This document shows, one piece after another, positions 2,286-27,744 of a stretch of DNA of 64,000 nt. The notes beneath the pieces are model-generated. The model did not search any database. It was not told the origin of the DNA and saw nothing but the letters and a program-made list of their open reading frames with translations. A program made the position numbers and the translations under genes. The stretch's first letter is position 1. Every line of letters begins with the position of its first letter. Where the stretch lies: the IMG/VR virus record IMGVR_UViG_2880378312_000006, one strand, 5' to 3'. The DNA comes from a virus. Its lineage: Duplodnaviria; Heunggongvirae; Uroviricota; Caudoviricetes.

Positions 2286-3611
2286 TTAGACTCTTGTTTC
2301 TTGGATTATATCAAAGATATCAACATGATTTGATGGATTATGATGTGGTAAGCCATTGCTTTCGATATCGATTACCACATCCTCTGGATTTGGATGCCGC
2401 TGTCCAACAGGGATACCTTCTTCCATTGCGCGTATATCAGCACCTGTGGCATGTTCAATATCTGCTTTATTGGGGAAAATAGCTCCTTCTCTTGCGTGCC
2501 ACCATATACGAGGATAGTCAGTGAATCTAGCTACTTCAAACTCGGCCTTGTTTAAATCGGCAGCCCCCAGTGTCGCACCAGCCCACCATAAAATAGTGTC
2601 TGGCTTTAATCCAGGGGTATTATACTGTATGGCATGCCCTGCTGCTTGCCCAACCATTGCACCGATATGAGGACTTAACATTGGATCTGTACTAGCAAAT
2701 CTGGATACTGCAAATCCCCCTAAAGCACCAAGCGCATTTGCGGCAGCATTGGTAAGAACGGCATATTTAGTATTAGGGTTATCTAAATCCCACTTGAAAT
2801 GTGCGCCAAACTCCAGCCCTAGAGTTGCCTGTAATGGAGATGCACCATATTTAAAATCTGCTTCTCCCGGTCTGATAACCCACTCCTCCGTGTAATTTGC
2901 TTTCGGCCCATCAGGAGTAAGTGGTGTTTCTCCAACAAGCTTCCATCCATTTTCAGTTTTGACTATAGGAAGTTCTACACCATGATTACGAACCACTTGA
3001 GCTGTTAATCCAAACCATGGTATTGGGTCTTTTGGCTCGGTGGTTACCGTCGAAGTAGTGGCTGATGTTCCAGTCGATGCAATAGTCGACACTGCAGTGG
3101 TTGATATATTACTGTTGCTTAATGCATTTTTTAACGGGCCAGGAAGGTCTTTAAAATTAAAACCTATTTCATCATGCAGAGGGAATATCTGTAAAAAATA
3201 ATTACCTGATGTAGGATGAATATCTGGTTTTACAATGTTTAGCTGGACACCATATTTACCAGAGATGCCTGAAACGGAACTAGGTATCTCTAATGCCATT
3301 TGGGTAACATTGAATAAACCAAACATATCCAATGTTTTTTTTCCTATGGATCCTTCTTCAAGGTGAGGAGCTATATATTCGTCTAGCCCTGAGAGCAGAC
3401 CTTTATCTTTTATCAAGCTCAGTAGAGCTGTTGTTTCACCGCATTCCGGTGCATGTTGCTGTATATCATCTGGAATATTAACAACAAATCCAGCTTGGCA
3501 TCCTAGAGGTAATTCGGATTGCGGTATTTGTGTAGAGGGTATTTGTTCTGTTTGATGATGTTGATTGTTTTGTGAGGTGATTCCAGATTGTATGGTCGGT
3601 TGAATGTTCAT
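2286..3611 (-). CDS. nleA: T3SS effector NleA (EspI), 441 aa
   Basis: 441-aa ORF starting MNIQPTIQSGITSQ and ending in the PDZ-binding motif ETRV; matches NleA from recollection; AT-rich upstream region. Confidence 0.85.
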   Translation of the reverse strand: MNIQPTIQSGITSQNNQHHQTEQIPSTQIPQSELPLGCQAGFVVNIPDDIQQHAPECGETTALLSLIKDKGLLSGLDEYIAPHLEEGSIGKKTLDMFGLFNVTQMALEIPSSVSGISGKYGVQLNIVKPDIHPTSGNYFLQIFPLHDEIGFNFKDLPGPLKNALSNSNISTTAVSTIASTGTSATTSTVTTEPKDPIPWFGLTAQVVRNHGVELPIVKTENGWKLVGETPLTPDGPKANYTEEWVIRPGEADFKYGASPLQATLGLEFGAHFKWDLDNPNTKYAVLTNAAANALGALGGFAVSRFASTDPMLSPHIGAMVGQAAGHAIQYNTPGLKPDTILWWAGATLGAADLNKAEFEVARFTDYPRIWWHAREGAIFPNKADIEHATGADIRAMEEGIPVGQRHPNPEDVVIDIESNGLPHHNPSNHVDIFDIIQETRV

Positions 3612-4001
3612 AATAAATCCTTATTACATGTTTATATCCATTAATAATATCAATCCATTGATACTATTAGTGTCACATATCCGATGTGGACAGCTTTAAT
3701 ATATAACTGTTTGAATGCTTGATTGATGTGACTTAGATCTCAAAATTAAGTTGTTAAATTTACCAGTTTATCGCTTGAACACTTAAAATAAATTATAAAT
3801 GTTTCTGTTATTGTTTTTTATAGTTTAAATTATTGTTGGTTGTATAAGCTGATTACATTTTTACTCTAAGTGTTATAAATATTTTATACTGATATTAGTC
3901 TTATTATATATTTTTTTAATGAAAATGAGCATAAAACTAAGACATATAATGCTTGGCAGCTTTATGCTCTTCTGATTGGCTGTATGTTTGATGACAAAAA
4001 A

Positions 4002-4036
4002 TTAGCGCAAGAGGACAAAAAATCACCTTGCGCTAA
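4002..4036. repeat. Perfect 10-bp inverted repeat (ttagcgcaag ... cttgcgctaa) with a 15-nt spacer; copy 1 of a roughly 170-bp diverged repeat
   Basis: Read directly; second copy at 6007-6041 with one arm substitution that keeps T-G (RNA G-U) pairing. Confidence 0.8.
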
Positions 4037-4271
4037 TGCTCTGTCTCAGGTCACTAATCACATCTAACTCATTGATTAATTGTGACTCTAAATGTAGTGT
4101 TTTGTCGCGTTTTGCAGTCTATCATTTAATCAATTGTATAAATAACATAATGATTTTTAATGTGTTTTTGTGATTTTATCCTCCTTCTGACATGGAAGTT
4201 GTTCGTTCAAAAATCTTATTAAATATCAAGTTGTTAAATCTGGTAAGTCATTATTGGTCAAAATAAAATCA

Positions 4272-5210
4272 TTATCCGATTTCAATTTTGTCCCACTCCC
4301 GCCCGCGACTGTCCCTATAATGCGCCGCCATTGAATCAGATTTATGTCCAAGAAGACGTTGTGCAAACTTGTAGCCAATCTGGTTCCGATATAGCCTCGC
4401 GGACAGACTACGTAGTTCATGAAATGTCGGTGGGTCTCCATCAAACGAGATCCCGGATGCATTTCGCGCCTTTGTTAAATACCGTGATACTGTGGCTGGA
4501 GAAAGTGGTTCGTGATAGGTTGATGCGATTATTGTTTCACTGCTGCTGGCCTCCCTGCATTTCTGTAGTGTATCAACCAGTGAGATGTCGAGTGCGTCAA
4601 TGGTTAGAGCCAGCGGAATGGCAATTTTGGCTCCTGTTTTACTCTGTCCAATGTGAAGATGACCATCGTTTATGTCTGACCACTTCATTCTGCACAAATC
4701 GCCCACTCTCTGCCCTGTAACGACAGCTAAATCCATTGACAGCCTCAGCCAGATGGGGAGGTGCTCAGCAGCATGGTAAATAGCGACATACTCATTAGCT
4801 GTCAGCCTTGAGCGCCTTACTTCTGACTTTGCTGCACGGGTTGTTGTTACTGGATTCGTTGCCACATGCCCCTCGGCTATTGCCCCTCGAAAAACGTCAA
4901 CAAGGGTTGACCTGATTACTCTTGCGGAAACCGCTTTACCTTCTGCGACGTAGGTGTTTAGCATTGCTGCCACCTCTTTCGTTGATATGTCAGTGAGCGG
5001 TTTGTCCGGCAATTTTCTTCGAATTGCCCTGATTTTGCTGGCGTAGTCGAGTAATGTTTTCGGCTTGCTCCCCCTCTAGCTGAGGATTGTTTCATATCGA
5101 TCAAGCCACGTATGAAGAGTGATTGAGTCAGTGCCTTTAACCCTGTCCAGCAATGATTCGTGCCCACTTTCGCTGAAAAGCTCAATGTTGGTGTGAATTC
5201 TACGAGCAAT
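4272..5210 (-). pseudogene. int: Lambda-type tyrosine integrase remnant (N-terminus replaced, internal amber stop)
   Basis: 246-aa ORF aligns with lambda Int from about residue 110 to the C-terminus (EGHVATNPV...HELRSLSARLY...GHKSDSMAAHYRD); the upstream frame reads ...TLHTWLDRYETILS-stop-RGSKPK where lambda has ILASRGIKQK; similarity ends near 5210. Confidence 0.8.
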
Positions 5211-5339
5211 GAAATGCCTCGTGGAAGGATGCAGTGATGATTTTAATCCTTTTGATATTATTAGGGTACCAGATCTTACTTACAACAAAGGATCTTTACA
5301 ATGTGGATGATTAGAGGCCTGTGAGCCTGTTTAGGATTC

Positions 5340-5991
5340 TGTGTAAATGCCTTTTCTTAAAAGTGACCGTCAAGACGGTCACCAAACTCGATAATAAAGC
5401 GGCTCATTGCCATTCGCCAGTCCCTTAACGGCATTGTCCATTTCTGTGACGCGGCCTGGATTGCCAGCCACACCACTTTTTTTACTGACTCGTCCGTCGG
5501 GAACACCTTGCGTTTCCTGATGGCATGCCGGATCACACTGTTCAGCGACTCGATGGCGTTCGTTGTGTAGATCACTTTGCGGATATCTGCCGGATAAGCG
5601 AAAAACGTCGCCAAGTTAGTCCAGTTTGACAGCTAGCACCGGCTTATCTGCGGATAGCGGCAGTCCCAGGCCGCAGCAAACGCTTCCAGTGCCTGCTGGC
5701 CTGCCTCTTCTGTGGGAGGCTAATCGCTTTCAGGTCGCGAGTGACGGCTTTGTATTCCTTCCATGACACGAAGCGCATGCTGTTGCGCACCATATGCACG
5801 ATGCATAACTGGATGCGGGCCTCCGGGAATTCTTTCAGGCCATACACACAGGCGATGAGGATATCGTTCAGACCGCGGTTTTTCAGTTCAGTCAGCACAT
5901 TGAACCAGAAATTCGCCCCTTCATTTTCGGCCAGCCGCATCCCCAGGAGCTCTTTCTGACCTGCGATATTGATGCCCAGTGCTAGGAACAT
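5340..5991 (-). mobile_element. IS256-family transposase remnant (frameshifted fragments)
   Basis: ORFs 5357-5614 and 5644-5991 carry IS256-family motifs (ILGINIAGQKELLG...LCIVHMVRNS...NAIESLNSVIRHAIRKRKVFPTDESVKK...WTMPLRDW); broken reading frame, no intact ends seen. Confidence 0.7.
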
Positions 5992-6006
5992 TTTTATGAT
6001 AAAAAA

Positions 6007-6041
6007 TTAGTGCAAGAAGACAAAGAATCGCCTTGCGCTAA
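6007..6041. repeat. Copy 2 of the inverted-repeat element (ttagtgcaag ... cttgcgctaa)
   Basis: Same orientation as copy 1; surrounding 170 bp about 75 percent identical to 3990-4160. Confidence 0.8.
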
Positions 6042-6275
6042 TGCTCTGAAACAGGTCACTAATATCATCTAAATAGTTGACTCATAGTGACAGCATGTGT
6101 TGTGTCTTGCAGTATTATATAGCCTATTATTTAGATTGAAGCCATCATAATCTATTGATGTTAATGGTTTTTTATTGTTTGTTGTTCGGCTTTTTATACT
6201 AATTTGAGCGAAACAAAAAGATAAAAAGTTGTTTTTCGGTAAGCGTACAGCGAGGGCCGTATTGACGGGGATGTG

Positions 6276-7814
6276 TTATTCAGCTGGCAGTGCTATGCGC
6301 CACGGAAGCAGTTCGCTGACCCGGTTGACCGGCCAGTCTGCTATGACGCCAAGCACATGGCGAAGGTAGCTTTCTGGATCCACGTCATTCAGTTTGCACG
6401 TCCCGATCAGGCTGTACAGTAGCGCTCCCCGCTCACCACCATGATCAGAGCCGAAGAACAGGAAGTTTTTACGACCCAGACTGACCGCCCGCAGGGCATT
6501 TTCAGCGATGTTGTTGTCGATTTCCACCCAGCCATCGTTCGCATAGTACGTCAGTGCCGGCCACTGGTTAAGTGCGTACGCGAACGCCTTCGCCAACTCT
6601 GAGTGTCGCGACAGGGTCTTCATCTTTTCACGCAACCAGCTTTCCAGGGATTTCAACAACGGTTTCGTTTTTCGCTGACGTTCAGCAAGCCGCTGCTCTG
6701 CCGGCATTCCCCTTATATCCGCCTCTATGGCGTACAACTGACCGATCTGCTCCAGGGCTTCTTCCGTCAGTGCTGACGGGATGCGGACGTGCACATCGTG
6801 GATCTTTCGGCGGGCATGAGCCCAGCAGGCAGCTTCCGTTATCCCACCATTGCGATACAGCTCGTTGAACCCGGCGTACGCATCCGCTTGCAGCACACCG
6901 CTGAAGCAGGCAAGATGAGTCTGCGGATGGATGCCTTTTCTGTCCGGGCTGTAAGCGAACCACACTGCAGGTGCCAACGCTGACCCTGCATTGCGGTCAT
7001 CACGAACATACGCCCACAACCGCCCGGTCTTCGTCTTCTTATTACCCGGCAGCAGTACCTGGACCGGGGTATCATCGGCATGGAGTTTGCCGTCAGTCAT
7101 GACATAGCCATGAAGCGCCTCTTCCAGCGGAGACAGCAGCCGGCAGCATGCATCCACCCAGCCCGACAGCAGTGAACGCCTCAGCTCCACACCTTGCCGG
7201 CCGTATATTTCTGACTGGCGATACAGCGGGGTGTGCTCTGCATACTTCGAGGTCAGCACGCGGGCCAGCAGCCCCGGTCCGGCGATACCCCGCTCGATGG
7301 GCCGCGAAGGTGCAGGTGCCTGCACGATGGCATCGCACTGAGTACAGGCATGTTTTTCCCGTACCGTCCGGATAACCCGGAAGGCGCTACGCATCAACTC
7401 CAGCTGTTCGGCGGTATCCTCGCCCAGATAGCTCAGTGAACCGCCGCAGTTCGGGCAGCACGGCGCCGCAGGCAACAGTCGCTTTTCGTCACGGGGTAGT
7501 GATTCAGGGAACGGCTTACGGGTGCGGGTCTGACGCAACGGACGCTGTACTGCCGGGTCATACACCCTACCAGTCAGCGTATCGCTCTCTTTCTGAAGCC
7601 GGTTCAGATCGGCTTCCATTTGTGCGATACGGCGGGAGACTTTTTCGGAACGACTGCCGAAGTTCATCCGGCGGAGTTTATCCAGCTGCGCCTGCAGATG
7701 GTCTATTTCGCGCTCCCGGTTGCTCAGCTTTTCCTGCAGGGCGTGGATCAGCGCTTCCTGTTCGGCCAGGCGCTGTTTCAGCAGGAAGATGTCGTCAGAA
7801 GAGATGTCGTTCAT
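6276..7814 (-). CDS. tnpC: IS66-family transposase (TnpC), 512 aa
   Basis: Full-length ORF with coiled-coil N-terminus and zinc-finger-like CPNCG motif, inside the IS. Confidence 0.85.
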
Positions 7815-7863
7815 AAGCCCGTATTTTACCGGGCTTATTCTGTGACAACCAGGATAAAGAGAT

Positions 7864-8211
7864 TTACAGCATGGTCAGGGAGGTCAGCAGCCGCTTAGGC
7901 TGTCGCCAGTCGATACCTTCCAGCAGCATCGCCAGCTGCGCCTGCGTAAGGAACACTTTGCCATCACGGGCTGACGGCCAGGCGAAGCGCCCACGCTCCA
8001 GCCGTTTGGTCAGGAGGCACAGTCCGTCACCGGTGGACCACAGCAGTTTAACCTGACTGCCGCTGCGGCCCCGGAAAATGAAAACATGGCCGGACATGGG
8101 ATCGTCTTTCAGCGCCGTTTGTACTTTCGCAGCCAGGCCGTTGAAGCCATTTCTCATATCGGTGATACCGGCAACCAGCCAAATTTTGGTCCCGGAAGGT
8201 AACGGGATCAT
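7864..8211 (-). CDS. tnpB: IS66 Orf2 (TnpB), 115 aa
   Basis: Conserved IS66 Orf2 size and position; overlaps the upstream gene by 4 nt. Confidence 0.8.
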
Positions 8212-8609
8212 CGCTTCAGTTCCTGTATCAGCAGAGTCAGGAGCTTTTCGCTGACATTGCCATTGAAGCGGAGCGTCCCGTGCCGGAACGTTACCTCACA
8301 GCTGATACTGAGGGTTTCCGGGTCCTCTGCGAGCGATTCTGGCTGTTCGGCAGCTGCATCGAGAGTCACAGGAAGTAGCTGGGGGCTCTCTGAAGAAGGT
8401 AATAGCAGCTTTCCCTCGCGCCATTGTTGTCGCCATTTGAACAACAGATTGGCGTTAATGCCATTTTCAAGAGCAAGTTTTGAGATGGATATCCCGGGTT
8501 CACAGGAGGCAGCAACGAGCTGCTGTTTAAATTCGGGAGGATAATTAGGGCAGCCTTTTCGCCTGCCGGGAGTCACATTTTTCTGCATATCTGATACTTT
8601 GGTTCCCAC
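8208..8609 (-). CDS. tnpA: IS66 Orf1 (TnpA), 133 aa
   Basis: First gene of the IS66 three-ORF set. Confidence 0.8.
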   Translation of the reverse strand: MGTKVSDMQKNVTPGRRKGCPNYPPEFKQQLVAASCEPGISISKLALENGINANLLFKWRQQWREGKLLLPSSESPQLLPVTLDAAAEQPESLAEDPETLSISCEVTFRHGTLRFNGNVSEKLLTLLIQELKR

Positions 8610-8892
8610 TACTTATTTGGTGGACACCACTTTGTCTAATTCGTCAGATTCTGACCAGACGGTTCAGGCTGTACGCTTACGTTTTTCGTGTCTTTAAGTG
8701 ATACCAGATGGTATTGCGCTAAATGTACCAATGGGTATACCAAGAGCACTAAAAACAAAGGGGCAACCACTTTGTAACCCCTTGATTATTTGCAGAAGCG
8801 CAGAAAATCGAACTCTGGAACCCTTTCGGGGCATCCTTTTTCAAGAATGAAGAAAAAAATAACTAAAAAATCAAGTTGTTAGGAAGTTATTC

Positions 8893-9162
8893 ATGGCTAG
8901 TGTACCAACTCTTTTCTGGGCTAATAGCTATGATTTGTTTGTATTATTTGTCTCTGTCTCTATTATTTTTGACATCCATGCGACTTCTGATATTGATAAC
9001 CTCAGTTGTGGAGTTCTGTCTGCGCTTCCGGGAGGACGCATATCAAAACTACAGGATCTTCTGTTAAACACTGTAAAGCCATCTACATTGCATGTTGTTG
9101 AGTCTAAGATACAATTTTTAGTAGATGATTTATCTGCTATAGGCCTAGATATTTCAGGTTGA
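8893..9162 (+). CDS. Hypothetical small protein (89 aa) in an AT-rich region next to ISEc8; possible effector-gene fragment
   Basis: ORF with aggaag RBS-like sequence upstream; no recognisable family. Confidence 0.25.
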   Translation: MASVPTLFWANSYDLFVLFVSVSIIFDIHATSDIDNLSCGVLSALPGGRISKLQDLLLNTVKPSTLHVVESKIQFLVDDLSAIGLDISG

Positions 9163-27471: not shown

Positions 27472-27744
27472 ATGACACAACACATAAAATCCCACAATTC
27501 TGAAGCCGACCCGGAAATTAAGCAGGGGAGGCGTTTTCGTGCGCCTCAGTATGGCTGGTTTCACTATCTGTTCTGTACGATCGATGAGGCAGATATGCTT
27601 CAAGAGGCGTATCTGCGTCGCGGTGTCCGTGTGGAGCGGAGTCTGAACGCTGATCGTCTGACCTGGACCGTTTCTGTATATCTTCCTGTTCGTGCACATC
27701 TGCCACGGACACATGCCTGCTACCGTCAGCGCGTCTGGAGGTAA
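27472..27744 (+). CDS. Hypothetical protein, 90 aa (Rem-position gene)
   Basis: GGAGA RBS; sits where rem lies in Qin (between hokD and ydfU); no sequence-level identification. Confidence 0.3.
   Translation: MTQHIKSHNSEADPEIKQGRRFRAPQYGWFHYLFCTIDEADMLQEAYLRRGVRVERSLNADRLTWTVSVYLPVRAHLPRTHACYRQRVWR

Follow-up and report, generated by a model that had tools for sequence, protein, structure and literature searches.

The window analyzed here is a 64,000-nucleotide stretch of a tailed-phage record (Caudoviricetes; IMGVR_UViG_2880378312_000006). Within it, a palindrome occurs twice: once upstream of the effector gene nleA, and again on the far side of an integrase remnant. What is this palindrome, and why does it lie among effector genes? 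The original prediction suggested a regulatory element shared by effector genes, the end of a mobile element, or a recombination site. We are highly confident that each copy is instead the sib/tI site and the P arm of a lambdoid attachment (att) site: copy 1 belongs to the fossil of an uncut, HK022-like attP, and copy 2 to the relic of an attR of lambda specificity.

The repeated palindrome and its neighborhood

Reading the sequence confirmed the perfect 10-bp inverted repeat that had been proposed. In copy 1 it consists of ttagcgcaag (4002-4011), a 15-nt spacer (aggacaaaaaatcac, 4012-4026), and cttgcgctaa (4027-4036), and it recurs in direct orientation at 6007-6041 (copy 2). The same tail follows the palindrome in both copies; in copy 1 it comprises tgctctg (4037-4043), caggtcactaat (4047-4058), and catctaa (4061-4067). 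The 35-nt palindromes are identical at 31 positions; of the four differences, three are in the loop and one, C to T at 6011, is in an arm. The window contains the 17-mer CTTGCGCTAATGCTCTG exactly twice, and local BLAST also finds two copies of the element. The exact gapped pattern matches the window once, versus 0.00 matches expected from 100 shuffles. Chance does not explain the repeated palindrome. Diverged repeats of about 170 bp had been described around the two copies; there is indeed a direct repeat, but it is 142 nt long (3987-4128 and 5992-6133, 77% identity, BLAST E = 8e-26).

Three features define the surroundings:

2286-3611, minus strand: nleA, a type III secretion system effector gene (441-aa open reading frame; RefSeq annotation of the identical sequence), which is cargo of the phage b region and lies downstream of copy 1
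5199-5310, plus strand: 3' fragment of nleF, remaining after a deletion of 1,674 bp that took nleH1-2 and most of nleF
5357-5991, minus strand: remnant of an IS256-family transposase (positions 184-377 of 379 of profile PF00872; RefSeq), truncated internally at 5991

The deletion was identified by base-by-base comparison with FDAARGOS_293 and is common to 57 genomes. Copy 1 lies 391 bp from the start codon of nleA, close to the 390 bp estimated earlier, and copy 2 begins one base past the open reading frame of the IS256-family remnant (5644-5991), which it had been said to abut. The setting, next to the ompW prophage site, is the PPompW exchangeable effector locus, which holds nleA, nleH, nleF, espM, and nleG as well as chromosome-derived att sequences (Nakamura et al. 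2021, PMC8112680).

The sib/tI site and P arm of lambdoid phages

When we searched phage records with positions 3960-4330, positions 3990-4330 matched the part of lambdoid phage genomes that contains attP and int, in Gally (81% identity), HK022 (79%), and HK97 and lambda (74-75%). The aligned 50 nt already carry labels in GenBank. They are the "sib transcription processing site" of HK022, whose attP site follows directly, and the "sib retroregulation site" of HK97. Projecting these annotations through the alignment places sib at 3994-4044 in copy 1 and at 5999-6049 in copy 2. The tail corresponds to two Int-binding features in the lambda record, "int 1" and "int 2". Their projection yields the arm-type sites P1 and P2 in both copies; the distance to the core is conserved, and the motifs CAGGTCACTAAT and TnGTGAC are retained. 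The element is already known: it is the classical sib/tI site of lambda plus the adjoining integrase-binding arm. A search of Rfam 15 over 3700-6400, with E up to 1, matched no family.

We compared 12 loci that carry the element. The hairpin and the U-run are nearly invariant across these loci, including those from Salmonella phages, in which the P arm has only about 70% identity. Shortly beyond the U-run, homology gives way to variable cargo. Arm substitutions occur only in copy 2 of the window and in plasmid pDEC5D-3; each breaks a pair on the minus strand, and each is found in a decayed context. Among intact copies the hairpin does not vary, so there is no compensatory covariation, and the structural support consists of conservation and energy.

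In lambda-type phages, int is transcribed across attP, and a hairpin with a U-run (tI) lies about 200 nt past the core. Transcripts that start at pI end at tI; they are stable and allow Int to be made. Those from pL, antiterminated by N, pass tI, and base pairing of their U-run with upstream sequence gives a longer stem (sib). Cleavage of this stem by RNase III opens the int mRNA to decay in the 3'-to-5' direction, which is called retroregulation. When the phage integrates, attP is split and sib shifts to the attR end, away from int, so that retroregulation is lifted on induction. The classical work on sib is reportedly that of Schindler and Echols in 1981, Guarneros et al. in 1982, and Schmeissner et al. 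in 1984. More recent papers describe sib as a downstream element that retroregulates int (PMC5300877) and place tI in the b region beside att, where it shields the prophage's b region from outside transcription (PMC11253608).

Because the integrase remnant is on the minus strand, this is the relevant strand for the hairpin. Read on the minus strand, copy 1 has the order int (5198 down to 4272), P', core, P, sib, which puts sib downstream of int across attP. The order in copy 2 is the attR configuration that is expected after integration.

As minus-strand RNA, copy 1 is predicted to form a hairpin of -18.0 kcal/mol (z = -5.8) that is followed by six U residues (positions 3996-4001 of the window). 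With its flanks included, the prediction is an extended stem of -29.6 kcal/mol (z = -5.9) in which the U-run pairs with upstream sequence. The arms of this stem, 3993-4011 and 4027-4045, are a 19-nt inverted repeat (I2), and the predicted fold of the lambda sequence has the same architecture (-24.3 kcal/mol). A simple terminator scan did not flag the copy 1 hairpin, probably because the scan takes loops of 3-8 nt and the 10-bp arms here enclose a 15-nt loop.

The arm substitution in copy 2 had been thought to preserve pairing as G-U. This holds for RNA from the plus strand only; on the minus strand, which is the sense strand of int, it gives a C·A mismatch. The mismatch weakens both predicted folds: the hairpin is at -12.8 kcal/mol instead of -18.0, and the extended fold is at -15.0 kcal/mol (z = -1.9) instead of -29.6. 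The copy 2 hairpin retains six U residues after it and has the mismatch internally, and its extended stem is predicted to form no longer. Judging from these folds, the copy 2 hairpin is decayed.

We propose that both copies still act on leftward transcription to some degree. Since the copy 1 hairpin is intact, it would terminate such transcription about 390 bp before nleA, and this may insulate nleA from upstream transcription. Copy 2 would provide residual termination ahead of the IS256 and nleF remnants, for instance of read-out from the leftward genes of an adjacent insertion sequence, ISEc8 (see below). Residual termination by the two copies is likely.

Two att relics

Copy 1 is part of the following arrangement:

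3994-4044, minus strand: sib/tI, with the hairpin at 4002-4036 (projection of the HK022 annotation, alignments, RNA folds, and inverted repeat I2)
4042-4061: Int arm-type site P1, tgtctCAGGTCACTAATcac (projection of lambda "int 1", J02459 27583-27602)
4074-4093: Int arm-type site P2, gattaaTTGTGACTctaaat (projection of lambda "int 2", 27615-27634)
4183-4198: attP core and crossover region, CCTTCTGACATGGAAG (comparison with strain RM9975)
4244-4275: P' arm, taagtcattattggtcaaaataaaatcattat, which, as in lambda, overlaps the stop codon of int (alignment with the attP of lambda, HK022, and HK97)
4272-5198, minus strand: pseudogene of an HK022-like tyrosine integrase, with the catalytic domain only, frameshifted and missing its N terminus

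Within the P' arm we presume that sites P'1-3 are present, as assigned from what is known of lambda. Past the P arm, copy 1 is collinear with HK022 and lambda through the core and the P' arm and into the 3' end of int. The crossover region can be located by comparison with strain RM9975, which has the same nleA, sib, and P arm. There, homology ends after CCTTCTGACATGGAAG and chromosomal genes come next (annotated as DUF1175 family and alpha-2-macroglobulin family), whereas the window and pDEC5D-3 continue past the core into the P' arm. By this comparison of sequences, the RM9975 junction is a true attR, which puts the crossover of copy 1 within 4183-4198.

The integrase itself is recognizable (PF00589, E = 1.9e-38) and is 87% identical at the amino acid level to the C-terminal part of HK022 Int. 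RefSeq annotates it as a frameshifted, N-terminally truncated pseudogene, and the arm-binding N terminus is absent. It is not a functional cognate integrase. Because the gene is frameshifted and lacks the arm-binding part, the att sites are relics rather than a working module. We propose that copy 1 represents the sib-P-core-P'-int stretch of an HK022-like phage, which would have kept the uncut attP order while its integrase died.

Copy 2 has a different continuation:

5999-6049, minus strand: sib/tI, decayed, with the hairpin at 6007-6041 (alignments and folds)
6047-6066 and 6079-6098: Int arm-type sites P1 and P2 (projection of lambda features)
6188-6202: lambda-type att core, gGCTTTTTATACTAA, one T shorter than the lambda core GCTTTTTTATACTAA (alignments)
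6203-6238: B' arm and ybhB-side flank of lambda attB, part 1 (alignment of the attR junction)
6239-8680, minus strand: ISEc8 (IS66 family, 2,442 bp), inserted in the bacterial flank of the attR relic (inverted repeats, sequence, and annotation)
8689-8722: ybhB-side flank relic, part 2, beyond ISEc8

The P arm of copy 2 runs to GGCTTTTTATACTAA (6188-6202), which matches the lambda core at 14 of 15 bases. The sequence past the core, TTTGAGCGAAAC, aligns to the host side of attR beside ybhB-bioA in VR50, VL40, a K-12 lysogen, and O157 FRIK944. It is interrupted by ISEc8, which is bounded by an 8-bp target duplication (GTTTTTCG, 6231-6238 and 8681-8688). Homology to the ybhB flank resumes beyond the insertion (39 nt, 87% identity, E = 7e-8). 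Altogether, about 70 bp of host flank is homologous to the ybhB side of lambda attB, in two parts split by ISEc8.

Within E. coli, conservation of the true ybhB flank is 97% or more, which implies that the copy 2 relic is old or came from a relative. When we looked for a donor among genomes at one per species, an exact 28-mer from the ybhB-like flank had no match. In the same one-per-species sampling, the variant core/B' junction appeared only in a metagenome-assembled genome (MAG) of Leclercia, as an empty attB, and the remaining flank there is unlike the relic. The open reading frame beside this empty attB is presumably ybhC, which we recognized by eye.

We propose that copy 2 was the sib-P-core-B' end of a prophage of lambda specificity that once lay beside ybhB. 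It would have been carried into the effector locus with its ~70 bp of host-flank homology and later struck by ISEc8, while its hairpin decayed. The cargo module just upstream of copy 2 in reference O157 genomes is paralogous to a prophage end that is still at ybhB. The native ybhB locus of O157 has a tail-fiber fragment, nleH1-1, an IS256 remnant, nleD, attR, and ybhB, in that order; the reference copy 2 module has a tail-fiber fragment, nleH1-2, nleF, an IS256 remnant, and copy 2. The two modules are 81-85% identical (nleH1-2 is 85% identical to the nleH1-1 region, and the IS256 remnants are 81.5% identical). We also considered that a tandem lysogen with one shared core might have given rise to both the junction in copy 1 and the attR of copy 2, and we rejected this: the cores differ (CCTTCTGACATGGAA and GGCTTTTTATACTAA).

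Tentatively, then, copy 2 could be an undescribed fourth chromosome-derived att fragment in the PPompW locus. As an attR half-site (P-O-B') with ~70 bp of ybhB-side homology, it would be the footprint expected of an aberrant excision like that of lambda-bio phages. Nakamura et al. left open the route by which host att DNA enters prophages (PMC8112680). If our suggestion is true, aberrant excision that carries attR and host flank into another phage is one such mechanism. The lambda-attB-derived attR half-site in the effector locus is the sole mildly new point of this analysis, and it may be new; the main text of PMC8112680 makes no mention of it.

Could the relics still be live targets, at which copy 1 or copy 2 docks phages of the HK022 or lambda type? 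This is compatible with our main explanation, and would add a present-day function that extends the prophage-in-prophage system known from the locus, but we consider it quite unlikely. Functional chromosome-derived attB sequences are known in the locus (PMC8112680), copy 2 retains the 7-bp overlap TTTATAC and both arm sites, and the core of copy 1 is a real crossover point in RM9975. Against this, the core of copy 2 is short by one T, and its B' site reads TAATTTG where attB has TAACTTG. Also, of the 1,937 genomes with a match to the copy 2 junction, 1,933 cover 80% or more of its length; interruptions are therefore at best rare, and we saw no occupied example. The neighboring int is dead.

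Effector genes, insertion sequences, and known systems

If the element is the sib/tI site and P arm of a lambdoid phage, its place among effector genes has a simple explanation. Effector cargo fills the phage b region, from the tail-fiber genes to att, and so nle genes end up directly beside sib and att. VL40 has the same layout with an ipaH effector as the cargo. The link to nle genes is positional, and the element is not specific to them. It is present, almost invariant, in lambda, HK022, HK97, Gally, and Salmonella phages, all of which lack nle genes. A genome-wide search, which had been suggested as a way to find an association with nle genes, instead gave 3,539 occurrences of the element among 5,426 complete E. 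coli genomes, of which 2,062 (~38%) have it, including a K-12 lysogen and other strains without nle genes. These results argue against a shared regulatory element of effector genes.

A more specific version of this idea is that the palindrome is a cis-regulatory operator of nle genes, bound by a transcription factor and similar to the nle regulatory inverted repeat (NRIR). An nle-associated inverted repeat has been published (PMC7142665), copy 1 is 391 bp upstream of nleA, and copy 2 is near nleH1-2 and nleF in reference O157 genomes. But copy 2 is downstream of these genes, beyond the 3' end of nleF. The element is always at the boundary of att and int, with no fixed distance to a promoter, and its occurrence in nle-free phages and lysogens does not fit the distribution of the NRIR, which is confined to a subset of nle promoters. 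A review places nleA in the Ler-regulated class, outside the NRIR class (PMC7142665), and the copy 2 substitution disrupts a pair on the relevant strand. We therefore think that an operator is very improbable.

That the element is the terminal inverted repeat of an insertion sequence of the IS256 or IS66 family, or a MITE-like derivative of one, has next to no chance of being right: although copy 2 directly abuts the IS256-family remnant and has ISEc8 200 bp to its right, the two copies are direct rather than inverted, the remnant is truncated internally where it meets copy 2 (positions 184-377 of 379 in the profile), ISEc8 is bounded by inverted repeats unrelated to the element (GTAAGCGTACAGC...) and by a separate target duplication, copy 1 has no neighboring IS, and the homologs in lambda, HK022, and HK97 are not associated with any IS.

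The element is thus not the end of an IS, but it does mark an end of another kind, the right end of a lambdoid phage at the boundary of the b region and att. Similarly, the suggestion of a recombination site holds for the tail (the P arm of attP with its Int arm-type sites) and not for the palindrome, which is a terminator and processing site that acts at the level of RNA. Weak repeat families (D4, D9, D10, and D13) in the AT-rich region upstream of nleA (3612-3990) led us to check it for one more att relic in degenerate form, which would have been the third; local BLAST gave nothing beyond chance.

Identifying the palindrome as sib/tI removes a false lead, since it is neither a new regulator of effector genes nor a new mobile-element end. 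Each sib-P arm is a landmark for the right end of a former lambdoid phage. Two of them imply that the O157:H7 effector locus was assembled from at least two stacked phage ends, one with the nleA module and one with the nleH/nleF module, and one of these ends still has host DNA from the classical lambda attachment site. This fits the published prophage-in-prophage picture of how EHEC accumulated type III effectors, and extends it slightly.

Four known systems are close to what we found. The first is the sib/tI site of lambda, which is nearly identical in sequence (TTAGCGCAAGAAGACAAAAATCACCTTGCGCTAA in lambda and TTAGCGCAAGAGGACAAAAAATCACCTTGCGCTAA in copy 1). It shares with copy 1 its position across att from int, its strand, the U-run, the predicted extended stem, and the adjacent P1 site. 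It differs in context: here copy 1 has only a pseudogene as its partner int, copy 2 has no int at all, and the pL/pI context is gone, so that retroregulation no longer has a target. The stem-breaking substitution further sets copy 2 apart from lambda.

The second is the attP-int region of HK022 (X51962; sib at 190-239 and attP at 243-469), which is the best-annotated full-length match to copy 1. Its P and P' arms are collinear with those of copy 1 (79% DNA identity), but the cores differ (CCTTCTGACATGGAAG in copy 1 and CCTTTAGGTGAATAAG in HK022), which implies a different integration specificity.

The third is the attR of lambda at ybhB/bioA. Copy 2 shares its order of sib, P1, P2, core, B', and ybhB-proximal intergenic DNA. 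Unlike the native attR at ybhB, copy 2 belongs to the effector locus next to the integration site of the ompW prophage, and it is only about 81% identical. Relative to the native junction, it is missing 8 bp of flank and one T of the core, and it is split by ISEc8.

The fourth is the set of attB-in-prophage sequences from PPompW (PMC8112680). These are in the same locus and are likewise chromosome-derived att DNA beside effector genes, 81-87% identical to their chromosomal source. They are of the attB type and come from yecE, ykgJ/ecpE, and ompW, whereas copy 2 is an attR-type half-site (P arm and B') from lambda attB at ybhB.

A deletion and an insertion in the effector locus

In comparison with FDAARGOS_293 and other reference O157 genomes, the exchangeable ompW-associated effector locus that holds both copies of the element lacks 1,674 bp at window position 5198|5199. 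The missing segment spans the terminal part of the int remnant, a tail-fibre fragment, nleH1-2, and the greater part of nleF. FRIK944 and FRIK2455 are among the 57 complete genomes that share the deletion, so it is a natural variant of a lineage, in which two effector genes were lost.

The second copy, which is an attR relic of lambda specificity, has a ybhB-like flank that is interrupted by an insertion sequence:

6239-8680: ISEc8, complete, 2,442 bp, inserted within this flank
6231-6238 and 8681-8688: 8-bp target duplication of ISEc8, GTTTTTCG

In genomes of other serotypes (for instance, an O145 strain), the match stops at the insertion point, which suggests that ISEc8 is absent from those genomes.

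An IHF-like motif at the uncut attP

In the HK022-like attP of copy 1, the H' position is taken up by ATCAAGTTGTTA (4226-4237), which fits the IHF consensus. One near-copy, at 3746-3757, precedes nleA by about 135 bp; another, at 8870-8881, lies just upstream of the ORF that starts at 8893. Motif and near-copies form a weak repeat family (D9) of the window. Since the E values in local BLAST are about 0.5-0.75, the resemblance is possibly due to chance.

Related modules and attachment sites in other genomes

The module of nleA, sib, attP, and int remnant is also carried by pDEC5D-3, a 57.8 kb plasmid of the O55:H7 strain DEC5D (at about 3190-3240 of the comparison locus). There, the P arm contains an expanded tandem repeat of GGGTTTTTAT, with about five copies, and a G to T substitution lies in one arm of the sib hairpin. 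In RM9975 (3001-3300 of its comparison locus), the nleA-sib-P arm module is terminated by a true prophage/chromosome junction, which adjoins genes with DUF1175 family and alpha-2-macroglobulin family annotations. This junction defines a site used for integration by the HK022-like att type to which copy 1 belongs.

In a Leclercia sp. MAG (NZ_DAIQCE010000017.1; 3695-3735 of its comparison locus), a lambda-type attB, CTGCTTTTTTATACTAATTTGAGCGAAACGGGAAG, is unoccupied and adjoins an ORF that, by eye, is presumably ybhC. Both the lambda core and the T variant of the B' arm therefore occur outside Escherichia.

In O157:H7, as seen in FRIK944 (comparison locus NZ_CP016625.1, 984536-989991), a prophage sits at the native lambda attB. 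At the right end of this prophage, nleH1-1, an IS256 remnant, and nleD come directly before attR and ybhB. With 81-85% identity, this right end is paralogous to the nleH1-2/nleF module of the ompW-associated locus.
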